Positions 3,337 to 25,166 of a stretch of DNA of 64,000 bases are shown here, piece by piece. The stretch spans positions 38,667 through 102,666 of the forward strand of contig CAZSCV010000004.1 of NCBI GenBank assembly GCA_964605525.1, read 5' to 3'. A program made the position numbers and the translations under genes. The stretch comes from an uncultured Bdellovibrionales bacterium. GTDB lineage: Bacteria > Patescibacteriota > Minisyncoccia > Moranbacterales > UBA9337. How positions within the stretch are numbered: position 1 is the stretch's first letter; each line of letters opens with the position of its first letter. Under the pieces are notes generated by a model that worked only from the letters and a program-made list of their open reading frames with translations, did not search any database and had not been told where the DNA came from.

Positions 3337-4440
3337 TTATCTTCTCGTGTTTGGCGGTTTTTCGATGCGAATTTTGAATATATCGCTGTTTTTTTCTCCG
3401 GGGGTTCCGAAATTTTCTTCCGGATTGTCCCAAAAATATCCACTGGCACAAATCTCTCTTTCGCAAGTATGCCAATTTTTTTCTTCCAATCCATTTCCAT
3501 ATTCATTATTTCTTTCCATTGATTTTTTATTATTTCCGTTTTCTCCAAAAAACCATTCGACGCCCATTACTTCATCCTCTATATTTTCTTTCTCATTTTT
3601 CAATACCAAATTTCCATTTCCGAAATTTGACAAAGAAATACTGGAATTAACTTCATCAACTTCAACCGCAAGCGCGGAATTCGCACTTTCATCGGAATAA
3701 TTAGAAATCAGAAAATACCCATTAGAATCAATACTCTTTCCGCCAGGAATTTTCAGACTATTCCCGCTTGACCTAGCGTTTTCAATTTCCCAACCGCCAA
3801 TATCGATTTTTTCATCGGACAAATTTCGCAGTTCAATCCATTCATCCGAAGAAGAAGCAGTCGAACCCATCCACATTACCTCATTGATAATCACTTTCTT
3901 TTTTGGTTCGTCTATAAAAACAACTTCATTTCCTGATATTTCCTCCGCATCATTCCATCCTTGTTTAAAAGAAAAATTTTTTTGCCACGCGTTGAAATAA
4001 ACATCGAATTTACATTTTTCTTCCCAATCTCCGTCTCCAACTTTTAATTCTAAATTCCAATTGATATTTTTTTTCGCTTTCAAATTATCCGAATATGAAA
4101 AATCTTCCAATTTTCCATCAAAAATTTCTTCACCTTCCGCTTTCGCCTTAATATTCAATTGTCCACACAAATCTCCTGATACGTTTTCAGTAAAAATTTT
4201 ATAATCAAAATCGATTGTTCCTTTATTTTTAAGATAAAATTCTTGAAAAAATTCATCACCTTCCACAACATTTCTTTGAACAAACGGATCAGCTCCGTCG
4301 ATTTTCATATCCAACATCCCCGCCTTAAACAAATTTTTTTTTGTTTTTTCGCTATCTTCAAAAAACGCCTGCGCATCCGAAGACAAAGCAAATAAAATAA
4401 ACAATACTACAACTGAAATTTTGCAAAAATCAACCTTCAT
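3337..4440 (-). CDS. secreted protein with a lamin-tail domain (LTD)
   Basis: Signal peptide MKVDFCKISVVVLFILFALSSDAQA; LTD motif VIINEVMW…DEWIELRNLSDEKIDIGGWEI. Start placed at the internal Met; the ORF as listed extends to 4461. Confidence 0.55.
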   Translation of the reverse strand: MKVDFCKISVVVLFILFALSSDAQAFFEDSEKTKKNLFKAGMLDMKIDGADPFVQRNVVEGDEFFQEFYLKNKGTIDFDYKIFTENVSGDLCGQLNIKAKAEGEEIFDGKLEDFSYSDNLKAKKNINWNLELKVGDGDWEEKCKFDVYFNAWQKNFSFKQGWNDAEEISGNEVVFIDEPKKKVIINEVMWMGSTASSSDEWIELRNLSDEKIDIGGWEIENARSSGNSLKIPGGKSIDSNGYFLISNYSDESANSALAVEVDEVNSSISLSNFGNGNLVLKNEKENIEDEVMGVEWFFGENGNNKKSMERNNEYGNGLEEKNWHTCEREICASGYFWDNPEENFGTPGEKNSDIFKIRIEKPPNTRR

Positions 4441-4969
4441 AAATCTTCTTTTTTGTGTCATTTTTCAACTTTTTCATCCTCACGATTTCACTTTTTATTT
4501 TTCCAAATTCATCAAAAATAATAATCAAAGCGGGAACGACTACCAATGTCGCGAATCCATATGGTTGTTTTGCAGTATGAATAACATATCCCAAATACGG
4601 AACCGTCAAAAAAACTTTCCCGATAATATTTTCCTGTGCAACTTCATTAAAATCACGTTCCGAATTAGCATCTCCTTTGGTTGCATATTTTTTTTCTCCA
4701 TCTTTTTCTTTTATTTCAATGATGCGATGAGTGATTGTTTTTTTTGGCGTTTTTGCGTCCGCAAAACTAACAATATCATTAGCATTATAATTTTCCGCCG
4801 ATTTAACGGCTACAATGCTTCCGGTTTTGACGGCGGGCTCCATCGATCCCGACTGTACCACCATCACTCGATAATATCCAAAAATCGGAAAAACAGACAT
4901 CGCCAAAAACAAAACCACTATTATAACGGCTCCGAAAAAAACATAAGAAATAAGTTCAAATATTTTCAT
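4430..4969 (-). CDS. signal peptidase I, SipW type (S26 family)
   Basis: N-terminal TM segment, catalytic segment VVQSGSMEP…, length and layout of archaeal/eukaryal-type SipW; lies next to TasA-like genes. Confidence 0.7.
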   Translation of the reverse strand: MKIFELISYVFFGAVIIVVLFLAMSVFPIFGYYRVMVVQSGSMEPAVKTGSIVAVKSAENYNANDIVSFADAKTPKKTITHRIIEIKEKDGEKKYATKGDANSERDFNEVAQENIIGKVFLTVPYLGYVIHTAKQPYGFATLVVVPALIIIFDEFGKIKSEIVRMKKLKNDTKKKIYEG

Positions 4970-5040
4970 ACTATATAAAACTTCATCCCCCGACCCGCAA
5001 AAGATCGGGAAGAAAGTTTCAAAAAAACTCAAAAACTTGT

Positions 5041-5772
5041 TTACGGAAATATTTTATCGGGATTATCTTCCGATTGAACCACTTGCATTGTTATTTTTCC
5101 CGAAACGGAATCACCTTGCAAAATATTTCCTTCATTTTCCGGCAGGCTCCATTTTATTCCCAAATAATATGTACTAGAAGCGACGATTTCTTCCGGCAAG
5201 ACAATCCAGCCTATATTATGAATATTACTAGCTGAAACGTCTTCCAATAACGCTCTTTCTGCGCCATCCATAATTTTATTTCCTTCGCCAGGATCGGACG
5301 CACACGCCGGCATGTTTGTCGAACATTGCCAACCGGAAATCTCCCCTTCGTCCATCCAAAAAGTAAAAAGGAGTTTTTCTCCAAACTCTCCTTCTTCCAT
5401 TCCCGGATCTCCACAGGTTGAGTCTTCTTTTTCTTCCGGTTCACCGCAAGAGTTTTCCCAATCATAAAGACTGGACAAACTTATTCGTCCCCAAGCATTG
5501 TCGCTATACACGTGCCAGCTAATGGCAGATGATCGGCTGTCGCCCGGTGTGACACTATATTCGGAAAAAAATGGACGGTTATCCACCAAATCGCGCTCGG
5601 AAAACGAGCAATCAACTCCGGAACATTGATAGTCCACTTTTAAATCGATTGCGCTTGCGCTGAAAGTATTGCCGACGCTTTTTTCGGTGTCGCCAAAAAA
5701 AGACATCGTACCGCCAACCAAAACGATACTTGCCACTCCGATTGTTCCTAGGCTAAACAGTATCTTTTTCAT
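5041..5772 (-). CDS. TasA/camelysin-like secreted protein with SipW-cognate signal peptide
   Basis: N-terminus MKKILFSLGTIGVASIVLVGGTMSFFGDTEKSVGNTFSASAIDL fits the SipW-cognate class (GG(G)T…F.D.E…N.F.AG.LDL). Confidence 0.6.
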   Translation of the reverse strand: MKKILFSLGTIGVASIVLVGGTMSFFGDTEKSVGNTFSASAIDLKVDYQCSGVDCSFSERDLVDNRPFFSEYSVTPGDSRSSAISWHVYSDNAWGRISLSSLYDWENSCGEPEEKEDSTCGDPGMEEGEFGEKLLFTFWMDEGEISGWQCSTNMPACASDPGEGNKIMDGAERALLEDVSASNIHNIGWIVLPEEIVASSTYYLGIKWSLPENEGNILQGDSVSGKITMQVVQSEDNPDKIFP

Positions 5773-5828
5773 AATAATTTTCTATTCTCAGATAACTACT
5801 TTCCTTGAAAACTGAGAGTATATAGAAA

Positions 5829-6422
5829 TTAATCTTCTATTTCACCTATCGGAGCGCAAGCTCCTGTCTTTTGAGTAGCTGTAATCAACAAATCTCCCTT
5901 AAATGAATCAGTTTGAACACTGTTATCAGTTCCTTCCGGAAGCTCCCATTTGATCACATAAGTCCCCGCTCCCAATTCTCCCAAGGAATATTCTCCATCC
6001 TCGGTAAATTGACCGCTTGCAAGTTCAGTTGTTCCATTCGCAGCATAAATTCCAAAAACCATTTCATCGTTCAATTCTCCCTCACCATCTGGCGTACAAC
6101 CAGTTTCATCACTTTGTTCCGGCTCAGTACAGGTATTATCTTTATCATCACGAAGATCAACACTTGCCACTCCGCACGCCGCCACACCAGTGGAGCTTAT
6201 TGCAAATGTTTTTTCTCCATGCGACCCCGGAACCAAATTTGATTCATTAAAAATAGGCGAAGTCATTTCATCGCCATCAACATTGACAATCAAATCCAAA
6301 CTGCCGGCTGTAAATGTGTTTCCATTGCTTTCTTCCTTATCGGAAAAGAGAGCTCCGGTGGAACCGACTACAACCGCAACCGCCGCAAAAATAATTGCTG
6401 TACTTAAAAATATTTTTTTCAT
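5829..6422 (-). CDS. TasA/camelysin-like secreted protein with SipW-cognate signal peptide (paralog)
   Basis: MKKIFLSTAIIFAAVAVVVGSTGALFSDKEESNGNTFTAGSLDL. Confidence 0.6.
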   Translation of the reverse strand: MKKIFLSTAIIFAAVAVVVGSTGALFSDKEESNGNTFTAGSLDLIVNVDGDEMTSPIFNESNLVPGSHGEKTFAISSTGVAACGVASVDLRDDKDNTCTEPEQSDETGCTPDGEGELNDEMVFGIYAANGTTELASGQFTEDGEYSLGELGAGTYVIKWELPEGTDNSVQTDSFKGDLLITATQKTGACAPIGEIED

Positions 6423-6595
6423 AATTTTTTTGTTATTATTTTTTAAATTATTTTCAATACTTATTTTATAAAAATAAGTATTTTTGAAACTTTGGAAGTT
6501 TCCACCTCGACCTTTAAATATTTAAACAACCGTTTAAATAATAAATAAATTTATAAATACTTACTGTTAAAAAACAAAAAACCGAGTTTCATTAA

Positions 6596-6622
6596 TATGC
6601 AAAAAAATATTTTTGCATATTA
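6596..6622. promoter_or_regulatory. perfect 11-bp-arm palindrome atatgcaaaaa-aat-atttttgcatat, ~175 bp upstream of the TasA-like gene
   Basis: Seen directly in the sequence; candidate operator. Confidence 0.3.
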
Positions 6623-6753
6623 AATTAGATCGGTTTTGCCATTTGACTCCCCGCGCAATAATGGGCAACCATTTTTAGCTTTCTGCGCGGATCATAGCCT
6701 TCTAATTTTCTTTTTTATTTTGTACTCTCATTATCTCAACTGAGATTTTATAG

Positions 6754-7026
6754 TCAAGCAAACTTATCCACAGTAAAATTCCAAGTATTCGCCACTGCTT
6801 GGGCGATGCGGCGGGTAGTGAAATTTTCCGGCATATCCGAAGCAACTTCCAATTTCATATCTTCTGAATTTATTTTGTTTTTAGCAAGCATTTCATCGAT
6901 TTTTGAAAGCAAATCCCGGCTCAAACTGCTTCCATCTTTCCATTTGAGATTATCCAAAACCTCTCCGCCTTTTTTCAAGACAAGAAAAATATTATTATCT
7001 TTAATTTTGATTTCTAAAATATACAT
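6754..7026 (-). CDS. short TsaB(YeaZ)-like N-terminal fragment (90 aa), possibly a truncated remnant
   Basis: MYILEIKIKDNNIFLVLKKGGEVL…SRDLLSKIDEMLAKNKINSEDMK parallels the first domain of TsaB (MLILALDTS…GEVL…S(E)RLLP.ID.LL..AG..L.DL); lacks the rest of the protein. Confidence 0.3.
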   Translation of the reverse strand: MYILEIKIKDNNIFLVLKKGGEVLDNLKWKDGSSLSRDLLSKIDEMLAKNKINSEDMKLEVASDMPENFTTRRIAQAVANTWNFTVDKFA

Positions 7027-15022: not shown

Positions 15023-17890
15023 TTACAAATATCTTCCGGTCCAGCTTTTCTTGTCTTTTTCAAGTTTGTCCGGGGTTCCTTGAAAAACAATTTTTCCTCC
15101 ATTGTCTCCTCCGTCCGGACCGAGTTCAACCACCCAATCAGCATTGCGGATAACATCAATATTATGTTCAACAGCAATAACAGTATTTCCCTTATCCACC
15201 AAGGCGTCCAGAACTTGGAGCAATTTTTTCACATCCGCAAAATGCAATCCGATTGTCGGTTCATCCAAAATATACAACGTTTTCCCTGTTGATTTTCGCG
15301 CCAACTCCGTCGCCAATTTGATGCGCTGGGCTTCTCCTCCGGAAAGATTGGTAGCGCTCTGCCCCAGCTTCAAATACCCCAACCCCACTTCATCCATAGT
15401 TCTCAATTTTTCATAAATCAAAGGATAGCGCTTGAAAAAAACCATCGCATAACTCACGCTCATATCCAAAACCTCGGCAATATTCACTCCTTGATATTCA
15501 ATCTCAAGTGTTTTTTTGTTATATCTAGTTCCTCCACAAACCTCGCATTTGACATACATATCCGGAAGTAAATGCATTTCTATTTTTCTCATTCCGTCCC
15601 CCTGACAAACCTCGCAACGTCCACCTTTCATATTGAAACTGAAACGGCTGGAAGTATATCCGCGATTCTGCGATTCTTCCGTCTGCGCAAAGATTTCCCG
15701 GATGTGGGAAAACAGTCCGGTATAAGTAGCGGCATTTGACCGCGGAGTTCTTCCGATCGGACTCTGACTGATATTGATAACTTTGTTCACATTTTCAATT
15801 CCTTTCAATTCTTTGTGTTTTCCAACGCTCGCTCTTGCTCCGTAAAAATGCTTGGAAAGCGCCTTTGCCAAAATGTCATTCACCAAGGTCGATTTTCCGC
15901 TTCCGCTCACACCGCAAACTACCACGAATTTTTCCAGCGGAATTTTGACGCTGATATCTTTCAGATTGTGTTCGCAAGCCTTAATTATTTCAATATTATT
16001 CTTGTTTCCTACGCGGAATTTTTTCTTGTCGGAAACTTTCTTTTTTCCGGAAATATACAAAGCAGTGGAGGTTTTCGATTTTTTCAAACTTTCATAATCA
16101 CCTTGAAAAATAAGCTCCCCGCCTTCTTCTCCGGCGCCCGGTCCCATATCAATCACCCAATCGGCCTCTCGGATGAAATCACTGTCGTGCTCAACGACAA
16201 CCAGTGAATTTCCTTCATCCCTTAAGGATTTGATTGTTTTAATCAGTTTTTCCGTATCCCGGCTGTGCAATCCGATTGAGGGCTCATCCAAAACGTAAAT
16301 TATACCCATCAATTGGGATTTTATTTGCACTGCCAAGCGGATTCTTTGCGCTTCCCCCCCGGAAATAGTTTTGGTTCCCCGCGACAAACTCAAATATTCC
16401 AATCCCACATTTTCCAAAGCTACCAGCCTTTCAATTATTTCCTTTATTAAAACCGCGGAAATTTCCTTATTGCGAATACTTTTATTTTTTTCTAAAAATT
16501 TTTGCAAATATTCTTTCAGATTGGATATGCTCATACTCGCAAAATCATCAATGGATTTTCCATCTATCAGCACATTGAGATATTCCTTTTTCAAACGTTT
16601 TCCCTGGCAAGAAGAACAAACTTTGGCAACCATATATTTCTCAATCTCATTGCGGACATAATCCGAATTTGTTTCCAAATATCTTCCTTCCAGAATAGGA
16701 ATTACTCCCCGGAACCTTTCAACTGATTTATGCGCGCCATCCAATTTGTTTTCCGGTCTGGCTTGGCTCAAATCACTTCCTGATTCTCCCCGCAAAATAA
16801 TATTCAGGTTCTGCACAGAAAGCTTTCCAATCGGAACATTAAGAGAAAATCTGTGTTTCCTGGCCAAATCACTCACCATTGTCCCGTATCCGTTTTCTCC
16901 CATCCTTCCTCCGGCCTTGCTCCACGGGCGGATCGCTCCTTCTGCCAAGGAAAGTTTTTTATTTGGAATAATCAAATCCGGATCAATTTCCATCTTTATA
17001 CCCAAACCGCTGCAATCGCAACAAGCTCCTTCCGGGTTATTAAAAGAAAAATGGCGCGGATTGATTTCTTTTATTTTTGTCTGGCAATTCTGGCAAATAT
17101 ATTCTTGATTGTATTGCAATTCTTTTTCTTGATTTACCAATATAATCATTGAGCCGTCTCCCAATTTCAAAGCTGTTTCAATTGAATCGGAAATCCGTTC
17201 CTCATCCAAATTCTTCTTGTTCAATTCAATCCGGTCAACCACAATATCCACATCGATAGACATTTTTTCCGTAACAATCATAAGCGCCTCGCTCACTGAT
17301 TTTATTTTGTTCTCAAATCTTACCCGGGCATATCCCAATTGCTGGATTTGGCGCAAAACATCCCTTGGGTTTTTTTCCTTTCCTCCATAACGAGAAAGAA
17401 TGGCAATTTGCGTTCCGGAAGGATAAGAAGACACTTCCGCAAGTATTTCTCTTTTTTCTTTTTTCTCCATCAAAACTCCGCATTGCAAACAATGCGGGTC
17501 GCCAACTTTGGCAAATAAAATTCGCAAATAATCATATATTTCCGTAAGGGTTCCAACTGTCGAGCGCGGACTGCGCACCACGCTTTTTTGATCAATGGAA
17601 ATTGTCGGACTGAGATTTTCAATCTTATCCACATCCGGCTTGGAGGACACATCCAAAAAATTGCGCGCGTAAGAAGAAAGCCCTTCCATATACCGGCGAT
17701 TTCCTTCGGCATAAATCGTATCAAACGCCAAGGAAGATTTTCCAGATCCGGAAAGCCCTGTAATAACAACGAATTTGTCGCGCGGAATATCAACGTCGAT
17801 ATTGCGCAAATTATTAACTTTGGCTCCCCGAACAATAATATGGCTTTTATCTTTTTTATTTTCTTTGGAGAGATTTTTCTTTCCGGACAT
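15023..17890 (-). CDS. uvrA: excinuclease ABC subunit A, divergent paralog (UvrA-like 1)
   Basis: Two ABC ATPase modules ([14 protein letters not shown]… and [14 protein letters not shown]…), zinc-finger Cys pairs; 955 aa. Confidence 0.9.
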
Positions 17891-18031: not shown

Positions 18032-19345
18032 TTATTTCAAAAATTCCCTACCTCTCACCTTGCGATGGTAAGAAATCGCAAACCGGTGCGCCTCGTCGGT
18101 TATTCTTTTGATTAAATTTCTGTCATTTAATATCTCCACAAATTGATTTCGAAATCTGGATTTGGAAATTGGAAATTGTTTAGAAATTAAAAATTGGAAA
18201 TTAGAAATTTTTCTGGTCGGTCCTTTTGCCACCGCCACAATCGGAATATCAATCACCAGCTCTTTCCATAATTTTTCCGCCATATTCAAATGCCCGATGC
18301 CTCCGTCAAGAAAAACCAGATCGGGTTTCTGCCAATTGTTTTTGAATCTTCTAATCAAAATTTCCCTCATCATCCCCACATCATCCGCGCCTGCAATGGT
18401 TTTTATTTTAAATTTTCGATACTGCGATTTATCCGGCTCAAATTTTCCGGAATTATCATCAAACACAATCATTGAACCGACCGCATGCTCTCCGGAAATA
18501 TTAGAAATGTCGTACGCCTCAATTCGAATTAATTTTGAATTTATCTGGAAATTATCTTCTCTTTCAGAGACAAGAGCGATATCCTGAATATGCCTTAATG
18601 CAAATATTTTTCTTTTTATTCCGCCGGCTTTTTCAAATTCTTCTTTCTTTGAAAACTCCGCCATTTCCTTTTCCATTTTTTTTATCAAACTTTTCCTTTT
18701 CCCCTCCAAAATCATCCTGATTCCCCGGATATTTTTCGCGTAATCTTTTTTTGAAATTTTACCCGCATACGGTCCGGGGCACATTCCGATTTGAAAATCC
18801 AAGCATCCCTTTTCCGTTTTCTGCTTATTTGAATGAAAGGGAAAGATTCTCCGGATTATTTTAAGCGCGATTTCCATTTGTTTTTTGCTCGTATACGGAC
18901 CATAAACAGCTTTCGGTTCCATTAGATTTTTGGCTTTTAAGCTTTTTGAATTCAAATCGGTTTTGCGAAAAATCATAATACTGGGAAATAATTCTCGGGT
19001 AATAACAATATAGCAAAATGACTTGTCGTCTTTTCCCAGCACATTATATTTCGGCTGGTGTTTTTTTATCAGGTTGGCTTCCAAAATTAAAGCATCCAAA
19101 ACCGATTCAGTTTCGATTATTTTTACATTAGAAACCTGATGAATCATCTCCTCAATCGGTCTCAGACCTCCCCCTCTCCCCCCGGGAGAGGGTTGGGGTG
19201 AGGGAACAAAATACGACCCTACTCTACTTTTCAAACTAGTGGCTTTGCCGATATATATTATCTTTTTTTTCGCATCAAAAAAAACATACACCCCCGGCGC
19301 ATCAGGAAAATTTTTTATTTTATTTTTGAGCATTGGCGAGTTCAC
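18032..19345 (-). CDS. uvrC: excinuclease ABC subunit C (short form without C-terminal HhH)
   Basis: GIY-YIG N-terminus (GVYVFFDAKKKIIYIGKATSLKSRV), UvrB-interaction region, RNase H-like endonuclease domain; 437 aa. Carries an in-frame GC-rich insertion (PSPQPSPGGRGGGLRP). Confidence 0.85.
   Translation of the reverse strand: MNSPMLKNKIKNFPDAPGVYVFFDAKKKIIYIGKATSLKSRVGSYFVPSPQPSPGGRGGGLRPIEEMIHQVSNVKIIETESVLDALILEANLIKKHQPKYNVLGKDDKSFCYIVITRELFPSIMIFRKTDLNSKSLKAKNLMEPKAVYGPYTSKKQMEIALKIIRRIFPFHSNKQKTEKGCLDFQIGMCPGPYAGKISKKDYAKNIRGIRMILEGKRKSLIKKMEKEMAEFSKKEEFEKAGGIKRKIFALRHIQDIALVSEREDNFQINSKLIRIEAYDISNISGEHAVGSMIVFDDNSGKFEPDKSQYRKFKIKTIAGADDVGMMREILIRRFKNNWQKPDLVFLDGGIGHLNMAEKLWKELVIDIPIVAVAKGPTRKISNFQFLISKQFPISKSRFRNQFVEILNDRNLIKRITDEAHRFAISYHRKVRGREFLK
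19166..19205. repeat. GC-rich palindromic mini-element, copy 2, in frame inside uvrC
   Basis: cctccccctctccccCCGGGagagggttggggtgagg; hairpin arms ctctcccc/gggagag; ~70% identical to copy 1 at 294-330. Confidence 0.5.
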
Positions 19346-19360
19346 AATATGTTCCTTAAT

Positions 19361-22240
19361 TTATTTTTTCCGCAACGCTTCGCGCAAGTATTTTCCGGTA
19401 TAGCTTTCTTTGTGCCATTTGGCGACTTCTTCCGGGGTGCCGGCAACCACCAGCTTTCCTCCGCCATCGCCGCCTTCCGGTCCCAAATCGATTATCCAAT
19501 CGGCAGACTTGATCACATCCATATTATGCTCAATAACAACCACCGTATTTCCCGCATCCACCAATCGATTAAGCACATCCAGCAATTTTTTGATATCTTC
19601 AAAATGAAGTCCGGTTGTCGGTTCATCCAAAATATACATCGTATTTCCTGTGGCGCGCCGGGAAAGTTCACTGGCAAGCTTGATTCTTTGCGCCTCTCCG
19701 CCGGAAAGCGTCGTTGCATTCTGCCCCAATTCAATATATCCCAATCCGACTTCCTCCAAAACTTTGAGTGGATCATGAATTTGCGGATAACTCTCGAAAA
19801 ATTCCTTCGCCTCGGAAACTGTCATCGCCAAAACATCGGAAATATTTTTTCCTTTATATTTTACTTGCAACGTTTCCCTGTTATACCTTTTTCCCTTGCA
19901 AACATCGCAAGGCAAATACACATCCGGCATAAATTGCATTTCAATTTTCAAAAATCCTTCTCCTTGGCAATTGTCGCACCTGCCTCCGGCAACATTGAAA
20001 GAAAATCTTCCCATGCCATAACCTTTCTCCCGCGCATCTTTGGTGGCGGAAAAAAGCTGGCGAATCGGAGTAAACAGTCCGGTATATGTCGCAGGATTTG
20101 ACCGCGGCGTGCGTCCGATCGGCGACTGGTCAATCATAATCACTTTGTTAATATTTTCCAGTCCGACAATTTCCTTGTGCTTTCCCGGCACTTCCAGAGA
20201 ACGGTGCAACTTATTCGCCAAGGATTTGTACAAAGTTTCTTCCACTAAAGTCGATTTTCCGCTTCCGGAAACACCCGTCACGCAAACAAAACTCTTAAGA
20301 GGAAATTGCACATTTATGTTTTTCAAATTGTGGCTCGAAGCTCCACGCACAATCAAAGCCTTCTTGTTTTTCATCGACCGGCGCGAATCAGGAACTGCGA
20401 TTTCCATTTCCCCGCTCAAATATTTTCCTGTTATGGAATTTTTATTTTTCATTACTTGTTCAGGAGTTCCTATGGCCACGATTTCTCCGCCATGCTTTCC
20501 CGCTCCCGGTCCGATATCCACCAAAAAATCCGCTTCGCGCATTGTTTCTTCGTCATGTTCAATTGCAATCACGGTGTTTCCGATATCCCGCAAATGTTTC
20601 AGCGTTTCCAAAAGTTTCCGGTTGTCCCGCGCGTGCAATCCAATTGACGGCTCATCCAGGATATACAAAACACCAACCAGTTGCGAACCAACCTGCGAAG
20701 CCAGACGGATTCTTTGCGATTCCCCGCCGGAAAGAGTAAACGCGGTCCGATGCAAGGAGATATAATTCAATCCCACATCGCTGAGAAATTTCAAGCGATT
20801 AATAATTTCTTTGACAATTCTTCCGGCAATCAATTCTTCCTGATGGTTCAATTTCAATTTCCGAAAAAAATCCAGACAATTATCAATACTTATCTGCGAC
20901 ACTTCCACGATATTTTTCCCGCCAGCCGTTACCAGTAAAACCTCTTTTCGATAACGGCTTCCTCCGCAAGTCGAGCAAGGCTTTTGGGACATATATTTTT
21001 CAATATCATTTCGCACCGCATCAGAAGCTGTTTTTTGATAACGATCTTCGAGCCAGCCGGAAACGCCTTTCCAATCCAAATGAAAACTTCTCGTCCCGCC
21101 GCGAAAATGATATTTTACATCAATCAATTCTCCGCCCTCTTTCCCGTAAAGAAGCAGATCGAGATATTTTTTCGACAAATCGCGCAAACGTTTGTTATCG
21201 GGAATATGGTAAAAATTAGTCACGGCGCGAATAACCGTCCCCTGGTAATTATTCGGCTTGTAGCTCCAAGGAAGAACTCCGCCTTCATTAATGGTTTTGT
21301 TTTCATCCGGGATAATCAAATTTGTGTCGATTTCCTTTTTTACTCCCAGTCCTTCACAAGCACTGCATGCTCCGAAGGGAGAATTGAAGGAAAAAAGCCT
21401 CGGTTCCAGCGGAGGAAATTCAATTTCATGAACAGGACAGGAAAGATTTTGATTAAAAACGACCTCCCCTTTCTTTCCCATTTCTCCCTTTTCATTCCTT
21501 TTTCCTCTTTCTTCTTTTTCATCCAATTTTATTTTCACCAGCCCTTCCGATAATTTCAACGCCCTTTCCACGCCTTCAAAAATTCGAGAAATATTTTTTT
21601 CTCCAATTTCCACTTCATCGATAATAACATCTAAAAAATGTTTCTTATTTTTTTCCAATTCAATTTCCTTCCATTTTTCCAAAGAAATTTTTTTTCCGTC
21701 AATATATGCTTTCGAAAGTCCCATTTTCCACAAATTTTCCAAAAGCGCTGAATATTCCCCCTTTCGTCCCCGCACTATCGGAGAGATAATTTTTATTTCT
21801 TTTTTTTCTCCCAAATCCAAAATTCGATCAACGATTTCATCCGTTGAAAGGCGTTTTATTTCCCGACCGCAAATCGGACAGTGCGGCATTCCGATTTTCG
21901 AATACAGCAAGCGCAAATAATCATGAATTTCCGTAATCGTTCCGACTGTCGAACGCGGATTGTGAGAGACTGATTTCTGGTCAATGGAAATTGTCGGCGA
22001 AAGCCCTTCGATATGATCCACATCCGGCTTATCCATCTGTCCCAAAAACTGGCGTGCATAAGATGACAAGCTTTCCAAATACCTTCTTTGCCCTTCAGCA
22101 AAAAGCGTATCAAAGGCCAAAGTACTTTTTCCTGATCCGCTTATTCCCGTAAAAACAATCAGCTTGTCGCGGGGAATATCAAGGTCGATGTTTTTCAAAT
22201 TATGCTCCCTTGCTCCGCGAATTGTTATTTTTTTGTCCAT
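19361..22240 (-). CDS. uvrA: excinuclease ABC subunit A (canonical-like UvrA)
   Basis: [54 protein letters not shown]… closely parallels canonical UvrA; 959 aa. Confidence 0.95.
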   Translation of the reverse strand: MDKKITIRGAREHNLKNIDLDIPRDKLIVFTGISGSGKSTLAFDTLFAEGQRRYLESLSSYARQFLGQMDKPDVDHIEGLSPTISIDQKSVSHNPRSTVGTITEIHDYLRLLYSKIGMPHCPICGREIKRLSTDEIVDRILDLGEKKEIKIISPIVRGRKGEYSALLENLWKMGLSKAYIDGKKISLEKWKEIELEKNKKHFLDVIIDEVEIGEKNISRIFEGVERALKLSEGLVKIKLDEKEERGKRNEKGEMGKKGEVVFNQNLSCPVHEIEFPPLEPRLFSFNSPFGACSACEGLGVKKEIDTNLIIPDENKTINEGGVLPWSYKPNNYQGTVIRAVTNFYHIPDNKRLRDLSKKYLDLLLYGKEGGELIDVKYHFRGGTRSFHLDWKGVSGWLEDRYQKTASDAVRNDIEKYMSQKPCSTCGGSRYRKEVLLVTAGGKNIVEVSQISIDNCLDFFRKLKLNHQEELIAGRIVKEIINRLKFLSDVGLNYISLHRTAFTLSGGESQRIRLASQVGSQLVGVLYILDEPSIGLHARDNRKLLETLKHLRDIGNTVIAIEHDEETMREADFLVDIGPGAGKHGGEIVAIGTPEQVMKNKNSITGKYLSGEMEIAVPDSRRSMKNKKALIVRGASSHNLKNINVQFPLKSFVCVTGVSGSGKSTLVEETLYKSLANKLHRSLEVPGKHKEIVGLENINKVIMIDQSPIGRTPRSNPATYTGLFTPIRQLFSATKDAREKGYGMGRFSFNVAGGRCDNCQGEGFLKIEMQFMPDVYLPCDVCKGKRYNRETLQVKYKGKNISDVLAMTVSEAKEFFESYPQIHDPLKVLEEVGLGYIELGQNATTLSGGEAQRIKLASELSRRATGNTMYILDEPTTGLHFEDIKKLLDVLNRLVDAGNTVVVIEHNMDVIKSADWIIDLGPEGGDGGGKLVVAGTPEEVAKWHKESYTGKYLREALRKK

Positions 22241-23204: not shown

Positions 23205-25166
23205 TTATTTTCCTTGAATTTTTCGCAATTGATAAATCTCATCGCGAACAAGCGCCGCTCTTTCAAAATCCAAATTGCGCGCCGCTTCTTTCATTTCTCT
23301 TTCTTTATTTTTAATGTATCCGTTTACATCTTCCAATGTTTCCAGCCTGACAAAATCCTGCGGAACTTGAGGATTGATTTCATGATCCACAATTGATTGA
23401 ATTTTTTTCTTGATTGTCTTGGGCGTTATTTTGTGTTTTTTGTTATATTCTTTTTGTAATTTTCTCCTCCGATTTGTTTCATCAATCGCTTTTTTCATTG
23501 AACCCGTAATCCTGTCGGCATATAAAATCACTCTTCCGCTCACATTGCGCGCCGCCCTTCCAATTGTCTGAATTAGGGAGGTTTCACTGCGCAAAAATCC
23601 TTCCTTATCGGCATCCAAAATCGCCACCAGGGAAACTTCCGGCAAATCCAATCCTTCGCGCAAAAGATTCACTCCAACCAAGGCATCAAATTTCCCGCGC
23701 CGCAAATCTTCCAAAATGGAAATTCGGTCCAACGTATCCACTCCGCTGTGCAAATATTCCGATTTGATTTCATTTTCCTTGAGAAATTCCGCCAAATCTT
23801 CCGCCTGTTTTTTGGTGAGTGTTGTAATCAGTACCCGTTCTTTTTTCTTTGAAACTTTTTTGATTTCTTCCAAAATATCTTTTACTTGGCTTCGCGTCGG
23901 ACGCATTATCAATTCCGGATCAATCAATCCTGTTGGACGTATAATCTGTTCTACCATTTCTCCTTCTGTTTTTTCATTTTCATACCGGCTTGGCGTAGCG
24001 CTGGTAAAAATAACCTGGTTTATTCTTTTTTCAAATTCGGAAAATTTCAAAGGACGATTATCCAGCGCACTGGGCAAACGAAATCCATTTTCCACCAAAG
24101 CTTCTTTGCGCGCCTTGTCTCCGGCATACATCGCTCCGATTTGCGGAACGGTCACGTGCGATTCATCAATTACCAGTAAAAAATCATCTCCAAAATAATC
24201 GATCAGGGTATATGGAGCTTCGCCGGACTTTCTGCCAGTTAAAAATCTGGAATAATTTTCAATTCCGTTGCAATATCCCAATTCGCGCATCATTTCAATA
24301 TCGTGTTTTGTCCGGCGTCGAAGCCTTTCCGCTTCCAATATTTTTCCTTTTTTCTCAAGATATTCCACTCTCACTTTCATCTCTTTTTCGATGTTTTTCA
24401 ACACGCCTTCCATCATCGGCTCCGGAACAACAAAATGCTTGGCGGGAAAAAATATCGCCTTTTCCAAAACGGATAATTTTTCTCCTGTCAAAAAATCGTA
24501 TTCGGCAATATTTGCGACTTCGCCATTTTCCAATTCAACGCGCGTTATCACTTCGCGGCTGGGAGGAATAATCTCGATAATATTTCCGATCGAACGGAAT
24601 TTTCCGCGCGCCAGAATATCACTGCGCTGATAATGCATTTCCACCAGTCTTTTCATCAATTTCTCCCTGTCAGTTTTTTCTCCGACTGAAATTGCCAGTG
24701 TCGTGTCCTGATAATATTCCGGACTACCCAAACCGTAGATACAAGAAACACTGGCGACAATAATCACATCGCGGCGCGACAAAACCGCCGCTGTGGCGCT
24801 GTGGCGCAAGCGGTCTATTTCTTCATTTATCTGCGCTTCTTTTTCAATATATGTATCCGATGATGCGATGTATGCTTCCGGCTGGTAATAATCATAGTAG
24901 GAAACGAAATATTCCACTGCGTTTTTTGGAAAGAAAACGCGGAATTCTTGCACTAATTGCGCCGCCAAAGTTTTGTTCGGAGCAATCACCAGGGTCGGTT
25001 TTTGAATTTTTTCGATTACGTTGGCAATCGTGAATGTTTTTCCCGATCCGGTCACACCCAAAAGCGTCTGGAATTTTTTCCCGGATTTCATTCCCCGTGT
25101 CAACTTTTCAATCGCCTGAGGCTGATCCCCCGCCGGCTTGAATTTTGAATTTATCTTAAATTTCAT
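23205..25166 (-). CDS. uvrB: excinuclease ABC subunit B
   Basis: GDQPQAIEKL…GVTGSGKTFT helicase motifs; C-terminal UvrB/UvrC interaction helix (ERAALVRDEIYQLRK). Confidence 0.95.
   Translation of the reverse strand: MKFKINSKFKPAGDQPQAIEKLTRGMKSGKKFQTLLGVTGSGKTFTIANVIEKIQKPTLVIAPNKTLAAQLVQEFRVFFPKNAVEYFVSYYDYYQPEAYIASSDTYIEKEAQINEEIDRLRHSATAAVLSRRDVIIVASVSCIYGLGSPEYYQDTTLAISVGEKTDREKLMKRLVEMHYQRSDILARGKFRSIGNIIEIIPPSREVITRVELENGEVANIAEYDFLTGEKLSVLEKAIFFPAKHFVVPEPMMEGVLKNIEKEMKVRVEYLEKKGKILEAERLRRRTKHDIEMMRELGYCNGIENYSRFLTGRKSGEAPYTLIDYFGDDFLLVIDESHVTVPQIGAMYAGDKARKEALVENGFRLPSALDNRPLKFSEFEKRINQVIFTSATPSRYENEKTEGEMVEQIIRPTGLIDPELIMRPTRSQVKDILEEIKKVSKKKERVLITTLTKKQAEDLAEFLKENEIKSEYLHSGVDTLDRISILEDLRRGKFDALVGVNLLREGLDLPEVSLVAILDADKEGFLRSETSLIQTIGRAARNVSGRVILYADRITGSMKKAIDETNRRRKLQKEYNKKHKITPKTIKKKIQSIVDHEINPQVPQDFVRLETLEDVNGYIKNKEREMKEAARNLDFERAALVRDEIYQLRKIQGK

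Follow-up and report, generated by a model that had tools for sequence, protein, structure and literature searches.

The DNA analysed here is a stretch of 64,000 nucleotides from contig CAZSCV010000004.1 (the window, 64 kb), which belongs to an uncultured bacterium placed in the Moranbacterales within the candidate phyla radiation (CPR, Patescibacteria). At positions 3337-6422 its minus strand carries an operon of four consecutive open reading frames (ORFs) whose junctions are short or overlapping. Read in the direction of transcription these encode cargo A, a TasA-family protein of 197 amino acids (5829-6422; Pfam and NCBIfam profiles), cargo B, a second TasA-family paralog of 243 amino acids (5041-5772; BLASTP against cargo A), a signal peptidase I of 179 amino acids of the SipW type, i.e., of the endoplasmic reticulum (ER)/archaeal and SEC11-like type (4430-4969; TIGR02228), and a protein of 367 amino acids with a C-terminal lamin-tail domain (LTD), probably a third SipW-type substrate (3337-4440; Pfam M73 and LTD profiles). 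We consider it likely that these genes form, together with a promoter and a riboswitch in the leader upstream of them, one riboswitch-controlled transcription unit (tasA-like A, tasA-like B, sipW-like, tasA-N/LTD) which builds TasA-type fibres. The start of the peptidase is, judging from its relatives, most likely the ATG at 4969 rather than the TTG at 5032, and that of the LTD protein most likely the ATG at 4440, as its database twin P0032 also measures 367 amino acids; the latter start overlaps the stop of the peptidase gene by 11 nt, which suggests translational coupling of the two genes. An earlier note on this DNA had described the LTD, peptidase and paralog genes on the minus strand and had read them as a TasA-like system for extracellular fibres or matrix in an organism resembling the CPR. 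The ORFs lie where that note had placed them, the N-termini which it quoted for the two paralogs are correct, and its core reading is upheld by the evidence from protein families, peptidase type and relatives given below.

Proteins of the operon

Cargo A passes the Pfam profile PF12389 (Peptidase_M73/TasA; 37.6 bits, cut-off 22.5) as well as the profile of the SipW-cognate signal, TIGR04088 (25.8 bits, cut-off 19), with a SipW-type cleavage predicted at about the junction of STGA and LFSD. It shares 100% identity with a protein from 'Parcubacteria group bacterium Athens0714_2..' and 82% with one from Ca. Moranbacteria GW2011_GWE2_35_2-. Cargo B taken alone scores under both cut-offs (Peptidase_M73 18.5, TIGR04088 14.7); it is a full-length paralog of cargo A (BLASTP E=5e-20, 233 columns), carries all of the family-invariant residues, has an insertion in which Cys, Trp and acidic residues abound, and is kept as a 243-residue ortholog in the related loci L001, L003, L004 and L098. 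The SipW-cognate signal which the earlier note had attributed to both paralogs is thus borne out by TIGR04088 for cargo A, but not for cargo B, and the LTD protein has no match to this profile either.

A search of the PDB sequences with cargo A as a single sequence did not retrieve TasA, and a family profile was needed. The profile of the cargo family (30 members) matched only Bacillus subtilis TasA at E<=1, both as the fibre (8aur_A) and as the monomer (5of1_A), with E=0.007 and from end to end (profile positions 31-204 against TasA residues 6-208). The matched elements comprise the N-terminal ..TFxxGxLDL strand, the LKPGD turn, N..T(S/E)PE, and the C-terminal N.YQG.S....F.F.A.Q strand. A Foldseek search with the AlphaFold2 (AF2) model of the cargo ranked the TasA fibre 8AUR at the top and the archaeal AbpA at position 24. 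Both searches favour the TasA/camelysin-like reading that the earlier note had given to its cargo proteins. Among the cargos, conservation falls on the N-terminal strand, on PGD, N-x-C-T-E-P-E and GEL, and on the C-terminal N..Q.DS...Q strand, and these positions line up with strands in the structure of TasA. It should be noted that the N-terminal strand, residues 20-37, is unplaced in the monomer model (predicted local distance difference test, pLDDT, <50); this is what would be expected of a donor strand lacking its partner and may be an indirect sign of donor-strand exchange. Cargo A is the probable major fibre subunit. A separate observation concerns the N-x-C-T-E-P-E and G-E-L motifs of the cargos (cargo A residues 96-102 and 115-117; window ~6119-6137 and ~6072-6080, minus strand), which are invariant or nearly so across the CPR/archaeal TasA-like family. 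Cysteines accompany the N-x-C-T-E-P-E region, which aligns with N..TSPE of B. subtilis TasA and is modelled at low confidence (pLDDT 60-67), and the two motifs may represent a metal site, a disulfide or a cross-link site.

The peptidase scores 115.7 bits against the profile of the archaeal/ER-type signal peptidase I (TIGR02228, cut-off 51.85), and falls below the cut-offs of both the bacterial LepB-type (P-type) profile TIGR02227 (30.5, cut-off 47) and the B. subtilis SipW equivalog NF046067 (125.3, cut-off 190). It is thus of the same type as Bacillus SipW but outside ortholog-level membership. Its only relatives in the PDB at E<=0.01 are the eukaryotic SEC11C and SEC11A (E=4.6e-9), with no match to LepB. 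The boxes SGSMEP (Ser), THRI (His) and KGDAN (Asp) are kept in seven orthologs, a His standing at the position where the P-type enzymes carry a Lys; by analogy to SEC11 and SipW we take these to be the catalytic residues. The protein ends in a C-terminal transmembrane helix. The SipW-type assignment of the earlier note was therefore correct, and profiles and solved relatives alike separate the enzyme from the ordinary LepB group.

The fourth protein was not counted among the substrates by the earlier note, which had named two cargo proteins; both of these are indeed TasA-family paralogs, but the number of SipW-type substrates appears to be three. The N-terminus of the LTD protein (..DAQAFFEDSEKTKKNLFKAGMLDMKI) has the same motif as the cargos and passes Peptidase_M73 with 31.1 bits, and behind the signal peptide its sequence runs ..DAQA|FFEDSEKTKKNLFKAGMLDMKI, the motif that cargos A and B also have. 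The architecture consists of the signal peptide, a TasA-like N-terminal strand with a beta-sandwich (~30-182), and the C-terminal LTD (~186-355), the lamin-tail domain PF00932 being recognised with 49.3 bits (cut-off 34.3) at residues 186-293 in the numbering of the ORF from 4461. Alignment of the LTD-protein family with the cargo family by hhalign gave a probability of 98.4% and E=5e-15 over 99 columns, reaching well past the signal peptide. The AF2 model (pLDDT 87.5) shows a beta-sandwich (~50-182) and then the LTD, which is modelled with high confidence; Foldseek with the whole model returned mostly generic Ig, pilin and transglutaminase-domain matches, with TasA at rank 30, and did not inform on the N-terminal domain. 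TapA models are absent among the Pfam and NCBIfam matches of this protein, and its likeness to TapA is one of functional analogy. From its sequence the LTD protein is probably a third substrate of the peptidase and a minor subunit of the fibre.

Proteins in which the S26 peptidase is fused to an LTD exist. In L100:5001-6200 (also in L101 and L102; proteins P0094 and P0117) a single ORF encodes a SipW-type peptidase, a transmembrane segment, an internal cargo motif and an LTD. The internal motif, NTYALFSSTAEITG, lies between peptidase and LTD, and the neighbouring cargo has GYALFSSKVSMTG. This enzyme would be joined to its own presumed substrate, and the position of the motif suggests that the LTD part would be released by the peptidase. 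The fusions and their internal motif indicate that peptidase, N-terminal motif and LTD are functionally linked, which fits a modular terminal subunit; by analogy the LTD protein could be such a subunit, comparable to TapA or AbpB (PMC9245690).

A riboswitch in the leader

The 338-nt intergenic leader upstream of cargo A folds far better than its shuffles (z = -5.8). A promoter-like site at 6730-6757 on the minus strand (-35 TTGACT, 16-nt spacer, TG-extended -10 GATAAT; 10/12 in a consensus scan) is located ~20 nt ahead of the aptamer; as sites of this kind are no more frequent in the region than shuffled sequence would give, it is weak when taken alone. L004 retains TTGAC..(A/T)ATAAT, and L001 and L003 retain a TATAAT-like -10. 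The aptamer itself occupies 6619-6711 of the minus strand and matches the covariance model of the c-di-GMP-II-GAG riboswitch (Rfam RF03169; c-di-GMP, cyclic di-guanosine monophosphate) with P1-P3 and a pseudoknot, in which GGUUGCC pairs with GGCAAAACC. The score of 43.1 bits (gathering score 40) corresponds to E=4.4e-5 over the whole window.

Downstream the aptamer overlaps an intrinsic terminator, the putative expression platform (6565-6637, minus strand; inverted repeat I2, fold -24.2 kcal/mol). It consists of a long hairpin at 6578-6637, followed by UUUUUUGUUUUUU, and the apex of this imperfect hairpin (arms 6578-6605 and 6610-6637) is a palindrome with a perfect 14-bp stem and a 4-nt loop at ~6592-6623. 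The 5' arm of the terminator starts inside the 3' strand of the pseudoknot (AAACC/..AAACCG) and contains the whole 3' strand of P1. Since terminator and aptamer share these strands they are mutually exclusive, and a bound ligand should prevent termination. Between the terminator and the start codon of cargo A lies a conserved leader box, AAAGGUCGAGG(U/C)GGAAACU(U/G)CC..AAGUUUCAAAA (6482-6515, minus strand), which is near-invariant in the window, L004, L001, L003 and L092 and has no match in Rfam. It is followed by a hairpin (~6450-6475) of variable sequence with compensatory changes, and no obvious Shine-Dalgarno (SD) sequence stands directly before the ATG of cargo A. A fold of the leader box as a small hairpin was rejected, the central pair being broken in the window copy.

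The aptamer is kept before the gene orthologous to cargo A in L004, L001/L012, L003 and L013, loci whose proteins share 57-82% identity. Ten distinct aptamers were gathered by a pattern scan of metagenome contigs and with two custom covariance models, R1, built from four sequences, and the broader R2. In the alignment of these ten sequences, which was fitted to the model, 89% of the cells hold a standard pair as against 32-44% with slid partners, 13 of the 20 pairs are altered on both sides, and no shuffle reached the covariation observed. The pseudoknot, which is not part of the model, has its seven pairs complete in each of the ten sequences, with a single change from U-A to C-G. Several relatives score higher against RF03169 than the window copy (L099 61.7, L096 56.0, L093 48.5) and L003 (38.9) remains just under 40; high-GC copies score well over the Rfam cut-off, and the AT-rich CPR copies represent the divergent end of the family. 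Rfam at its gathering threshold gave no match on 11 related loci. L001 and L003 have an insertion in the P3 loop, which measures 17 nt in some CPR copies, and score just under.

The terminator arrangement recurs with differing hairpin sequences in L004, L001, L003, L092, L095, L097 and L100, and in all seven of the low-GC copies the 5' arm begins in the pseudoknot 3' strand and includes the P1 3' strand. Three high-GC copies are built differently: instead of forming a terminator, the 3' strand of P1 can base-pair there with the SD sequence. Both layouts, terminator overlap in the one group and SD pairing in the other, predict that ligand binding turns expression on, in agreement with the known ON switches of the c-di-GMP-II class (PMC7583470).

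The cassette and the riboswitch in other genomes

Scanning species-representative genomes yielded 311 loci that encode relatives of cargo A, mostly of the CPR (Moran-, Nealson-, Zambryski-, Vogel-, Kaiser-, Nomura- and Woesebacteria, Saccharibacteria, and others), with some in DPANN and other archaea and a few in Clostridia. Over the best 80 of these 311 loci a SipW-type peptidase gene is adjacent in 64, and the exact order TasA, TasA, SipW, TasA-N+LTD is found in 16. An LTD is present in at least 28 of the 80; the counts of LTDs are lower bounds because the LTD hidden Markov model was sliced from an alignment and is weak, giving only E=7e-4 for a Pfam-positive protein of L012. The LTD gene holds the same position in L001, L003, L004, L007-L011 and L097 as well as in these at least 28 genome loci. 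Where no LTD is present the gene after the peptidase usually codes for a further protein whose N-terminus is TasA-like and whose C-terminal part differs, and the Firmicute loci have the order SipW, TasA. The C-terminal modules of the cassette are highly variable in the more distant CPR loci L007-L011 (e.g., L007:10472-11683), where a Pur_ac_phosph_N (purple-acid-phosphatase-like) gene follows the LTD protein; one LTD protein there carries a CBM96 and one extra cargo a DUF642 or Notch/MopE-like repeats.

The riboswitch has a narrower distribution. Among 90 loci model R1 found it in close relatives only, to which R2 added loci of the Dojkabacteria type, and within the 80 best species-representative loci it is confined to L012 and L013. 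It is thus a lineage-specific addition which lies outside the core cassette.

The genes that stand behind riboswitches of this kind were then compared across lineages. The low-GC locus L097 combines riboswitch and terminator with a TasA-like protein (M73 29.5), a SipW-type peptidase (TIGR02228 96.6) and an LTD protein (52.1), and in the CPR locus L092 the riboswitch and the same conserved leader box precede a TasA-like protein. In L093/L094 (70% GC) the riboswitch is followed by a protein with a classic SipW-type signal (..GAGAGATFTDATHSVQTITAGTLDV), whose TasA match is weak and under the family cut-offs (M73 14.6), and by a candidate peptidase ORF with the motif SGSMRP; the 3' strand of P1 can pair with the SD sequence in this case. 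L100-L102, of the Dojkabacteria type, were reached through homology to the LTD protein, independently of the RNA, and here riboswitch (R2 38 and 34 bits) and terminator stand before a secreted protein with a SipW-type signal, for which no family match was recorded, and then the SipW-LTD fusion gene. A further case is L048 (Saccharofermentans, Clostridia), in which a c-di-GMP-I riboswitch (74.5 bits) is placed before a sipW-like gene and a c-di-GMP-I-GGC riboswitch (62.6 bits) before a TasA-like gene. Two unrelated folds of the c-di-GMP group thus stand before homologous genes in different phyla. On the 217-kb contig that includes L092 there is a second riboswitch copy (L095:1-109) before a gene for a cellulose-synthase-like family 2 glycosyltransferase (GT2; 181-1098), so that a polysaccharide synthase may, from this arrangement, belong to the same regulon in one CPR genome. 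Together these placements are what one would expect of a regulon of the cyclic-di-GMP type for building a matrix or attaching. As to the GT2 itself, this membrane protein resembles synthases of cellulose and poly-N-acetylglucosamine (Glycos_transf_2 41 bits; matches to CelA and PgaC weak). The B. thuringiensis operon with a triple-tandem c-di-GMP riboswitch (cspABCDE) was considered as a precedent and rejected, as it is not a TasA/SipW system.

Alternatives, mechanism and significance

Several observations weigh against a c-di-GMP-controlled fibre operon as set out above. The aptamer belongs to a variant class (GAG) that is defined by changes in the c-di-GMP-II consensus, its score in the window exceeds the Rfam cut-off by only 3 bits with that of L003 just below, and the riboswitch is limited to a subclade of Moranbacteria and scattered lineages, 75 other TasA-like loci having been searched without finding it. 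Neither cargo B nor the LTD protein passes TIGR04088, and a place for the LTD protein in the fibre is argued from N-terminal homology and gene position only. Finally, no GGDEF, EAL or HD-GYP protein was found within the 64-kb window (regular expressions GG[DE]EF/EAL/HD-GYP; Pfam on 20 large ORFs). The sole ORF of the window with an HD motif is, by its size and motif, possibly an RNase Y, and the regular expressions for c-di-GMP enzymes found none over all fetched loci. With just the 64 kb of the window in view from the genome, this negative is uninformative.

The ligand is where these points have most force. A cyclic dinucleotide, c-di-GMP or a close relative, is probable from the sequence of the aptamer and its gene context, and it is possible, with a clearly smaller share of our confidence, that the riboswitch is real but senses something else (another cyclic or a linear dinucleotide, or a host signal) to which the fibre operon would respond. 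The best Rfam family is after all the GAG variant and not canonical c-di-GMP-II, such variant classes are defined by altered consensus positions, and no c-di-GMP enzymes were found in the window. The 2017 description of the GAG variant by Weinberg and colleagues in PNAS reportedly left its ligand open. Set against this are the combination of a fibre operon with a cellulose-synthase-like GT2, which is typical of a c-di-GMP regulon, and the canonical c-di-GMP-I riboswitch that a Clostridial genome sets before homologous genes; moreover diguanylate cyclase genes do occur in metagenome-assembled genomes of ultra-small Patescibacteria/DPANN, where they are enriched in attached populations (PMC9938205). 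More speculative, and in our estimation improbable, is that the GAG variant senses a nucleotide other than c-di-GMP which reports contact with a host or its state, and so triggers in CPR episymbionts an attachment fibre with an LTD tip that binds the host surface or extracellular DNA. If that were so the operon would serve for attachment to a host under the control of a ligand, and would offer a way to de-orphan the riboswitch variant.

Other readings concern single parts of the locus. That the LTD protein stands outside the fibre, as an independent secreted or surface protein which shares the peptidase and binds, e.g., extracellular DNA or the envelope, seems doubtful to us. LTDs of relatives also occur joined to other modules (nuclease, OB-fold, ComEA-like) and to the peptidase, a phosphoesterase-like gene (Pur_ac_phosph_N) comes next in the more distant CPR loci, and the Foldseek matches of the model are generic Ig-like proteins; yet the homology of its first ~100 residues to the cargo family extends past the signal peptide, and loci without an LTD fill that gene position with another protein that has the TasA-like N-terminus, a pattern that suits a modular terminal subunit. 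The palindrome had been suggested by the earlier note as a possible operator, which would make it a DNA site for a repressor of the operon. It does exist and is perfect, a 14-bp inverted repeat ~170-200 nt upstream of the first start codon, but it is situated on the downstream side of the predicted promoter, within the leader that is transcribed, its letters are not conserved in L004, L001 and L003 where hairpin and U-run are, and its outer stem pairs with conserved aptamer nucleotides, as is classic for the expression platform of a riboswitch. The ORF list of the locus shows no gene for a regulator adjoining the operon. An operator is thus very improbable, and the palindrome is read from its sequence context as an RNA terminator. 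Least credible of all is that cargos A and B are secreted camelysin-type metalloproteases instead of fibre subunits, a reading suggested by the name of the Pfam family (Peptidase_M73). Both lack HExxH or any other zinc-binding motif and have just one (A) and two (B) His residues, their conserved positions match the strands of TasA, and TasA itself is a fibre protein (8AUR; PMC9245690); without a metalloprotease motif the Pfam name 'camelysin metallo-endopeptidase' should not be taken as the function.

We therefore return to the riboswitch-controlled fibre operon. Computation shows the family membership of the four proteins, the riboswitch with its covariation, the strands shared between terminator and aptamer, and the repeated occurrence, in other lineages, of the cassette and of the link between riboswitch and TasA/SipW genes; from the sequence we infer the following steps. 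Without ligand the leader RNA would form the long terminator hairpin and transcription would end at the U-run, as sequence and comparison indicate; with ligand P1 and the pseudoknot would hold the 5' arm of the terminator and RNA polymerase would read into the operon. The three preproteins would leave the cell through Sec and be cleaved by their dedicated peptidase of the ER type, as suggested by its family membership and by the SipW dependence of TasA and BsaA. By homology the cut would fall just before the conserved segment F-x-D-x-E-x-S-x-x-N-x-F-x-A-G-x-L-D-L, and the N-terminal strand so freed would, as in TasA and AbpA, insert into the beta-sandwich of the next subunit by donor-strand exchange. 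Cargo A, and possibly cargo B, would in this way polymerise into extracellular fibres like their homologs TasA, BsaA and AbpA. The LTD protein, with the same donor strand and a partial TasA sandwich, could take the part of a minor subunit at the end of the fibre, with a role in starting, capping or anchoring it, and might display its lamin-tail domain there as a binding module; this is the weakest of these steps.

The tapA-sipW-tasA operon of B. subtilis (PDB 8AUR, 5OF1) shares with this locus a dedicated ER-type peptidase gene beside its substrates and an accessory secreted protein with the same type of signal, and its TasA belongs to the same Pfam family with the N-terminal FxD..F.AG.LDL strand, the PGD turn and the C-terminal N..Q..S...Q strand. 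It differs in gene order, which is TasA, TasA, SipW, accessory in the window, where there are also two paralogs of the major subunit; the accessory protein here carries a lamin-tail domain with no TapA match seen, the sequence identity to TasA is only ~15-19%, and the peptidase stays below the SipW equivalog cut-off (125 versus 190). Riboswitch control is also peculiar to the locus described here, the B. subtilis TasA operon being regulated by SinR/SlrR repression. An ON riboswitch for cyclic-di-GMP before genes of an extracellular adhesive filament has a parallel in pilA1, the type IV pilin gene of Clostridioides difficile, but the filaments there are type IV pili, and those proposed here are Sec/SipW-dependent donor-strand fibres in a CPR host.

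Closer to the protein side of the system is the sipW-bsaABC(RSD) locus of C. perfringens, in which secretion and polymerisation of BsaA, a TasA-like protein of pilin type, require SipW and further secreted paralogs, BsaB and BsaC, are part of the same operon (PMC7395162). Regulation there is by the BsaRS two-component system and temperature, and the locus has neither an LTD protein nor a riboswitch. TasA and AbpA fibres are both assembled by donor-strand insertion, with TapA and AbpB proposed as initiators (PMC9245690). The archaeal AbpA/AbpB pili (PDB 7UEG; PMC9245690) resemble the present system in the TasA-superfamily jelly-roll polymerised through an N-terminal donor strand, and in a two-domain partner, AbpB, proposed as fibre initiator and adhesin. 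Their locus, unlike ours, has no dedicated peptidase and AbpA is far more divergent, as its Foldseek rank indicates. With respect to the RNA, the window copy shares with the c-di-GMP-II and GAG families (RF01786, RF03169, clan CL00127) P1-P3, the pseudoknot, the conserved ACCG and GGGGAG, and the ON logic; the CPR copies are set apart by their AT-richness, low scores (43 and 39 bits), the 17-nt insertion in some P3 loops and the use of a terminator, in contrast to SD sequestration in the high-GC copies.

A few further features of the window and its relatives lie outside the operon. A tRNA-Phe(GAA) at 37330-37635 (minus strand), within a cluster of tRNA genes (Leu, Val, Phe, Met, Gly), has its anticodon loop split by a ~233-nt group I intron (Rfam RF00028, 86 bits at 37382-37613); the intron option of ARAGORN calls it as tRNA-Phe i(33,233), and the standard tRNA scan missed it. 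Two full-length UvrA paralogs (15023-17890 and 19361-22240, minus strand), a duplication unusual for a reduced genome, flank uvrC (18032-19345), with uvrB at 23205-25166. In L004, which is syntenic with the window, a short T-box-like leader match (6608-6723, plus strand; 40.8 bits, gathering score 93) lies upstream of a glycyl-tRNA synthetase gene.

TasA/SipW systems, donor-strand fibres of the TasA superfamily and the riboswitch family in Rfam are already known. An automatic annotation as 'TasA family protein' exists on a Moranbacteria ortholog, and Patescibacteria have been listed among the phyla with PF12389 homologs (PMC9245690). In the literature searched we found no paper joining TasA, SipW and CPR, and no description of a CPR-wide cassette with a TasA-N/LTD subunit, of peptidase-LTD fusions, or of a recurrent c-di-GMP-type riboswitch before TasA-like/SipW genes; the coupling of riboswitch and fibre and the LTD subunit thus appear to be undescribed. 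Most CPR bacteria have yet to be cultured; they are very small, presumably live attached to other cells, and build and regulate their surface structures in ways of which little is known. The locus offers a concrete and widely conserved candidate for an extracellular fibre, with an unusual modular LTD end subunit and, in some lineages, an RNA switch. The pairing with riboswitches of the c-di-GMP type, met with in CPR, in high-GC bacteria and in one Clostridial genome, would connect fibres of the TasA type with signalling by cyclic dinucleotides, a link which to our knowledge is undescribed in these lineages, and it supplies gene context for finding the ligand of an orphan riboswitch variant. 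It would further imply that second-messenger control of the sessile or attached state is present even in genomes of ~1 Mb.

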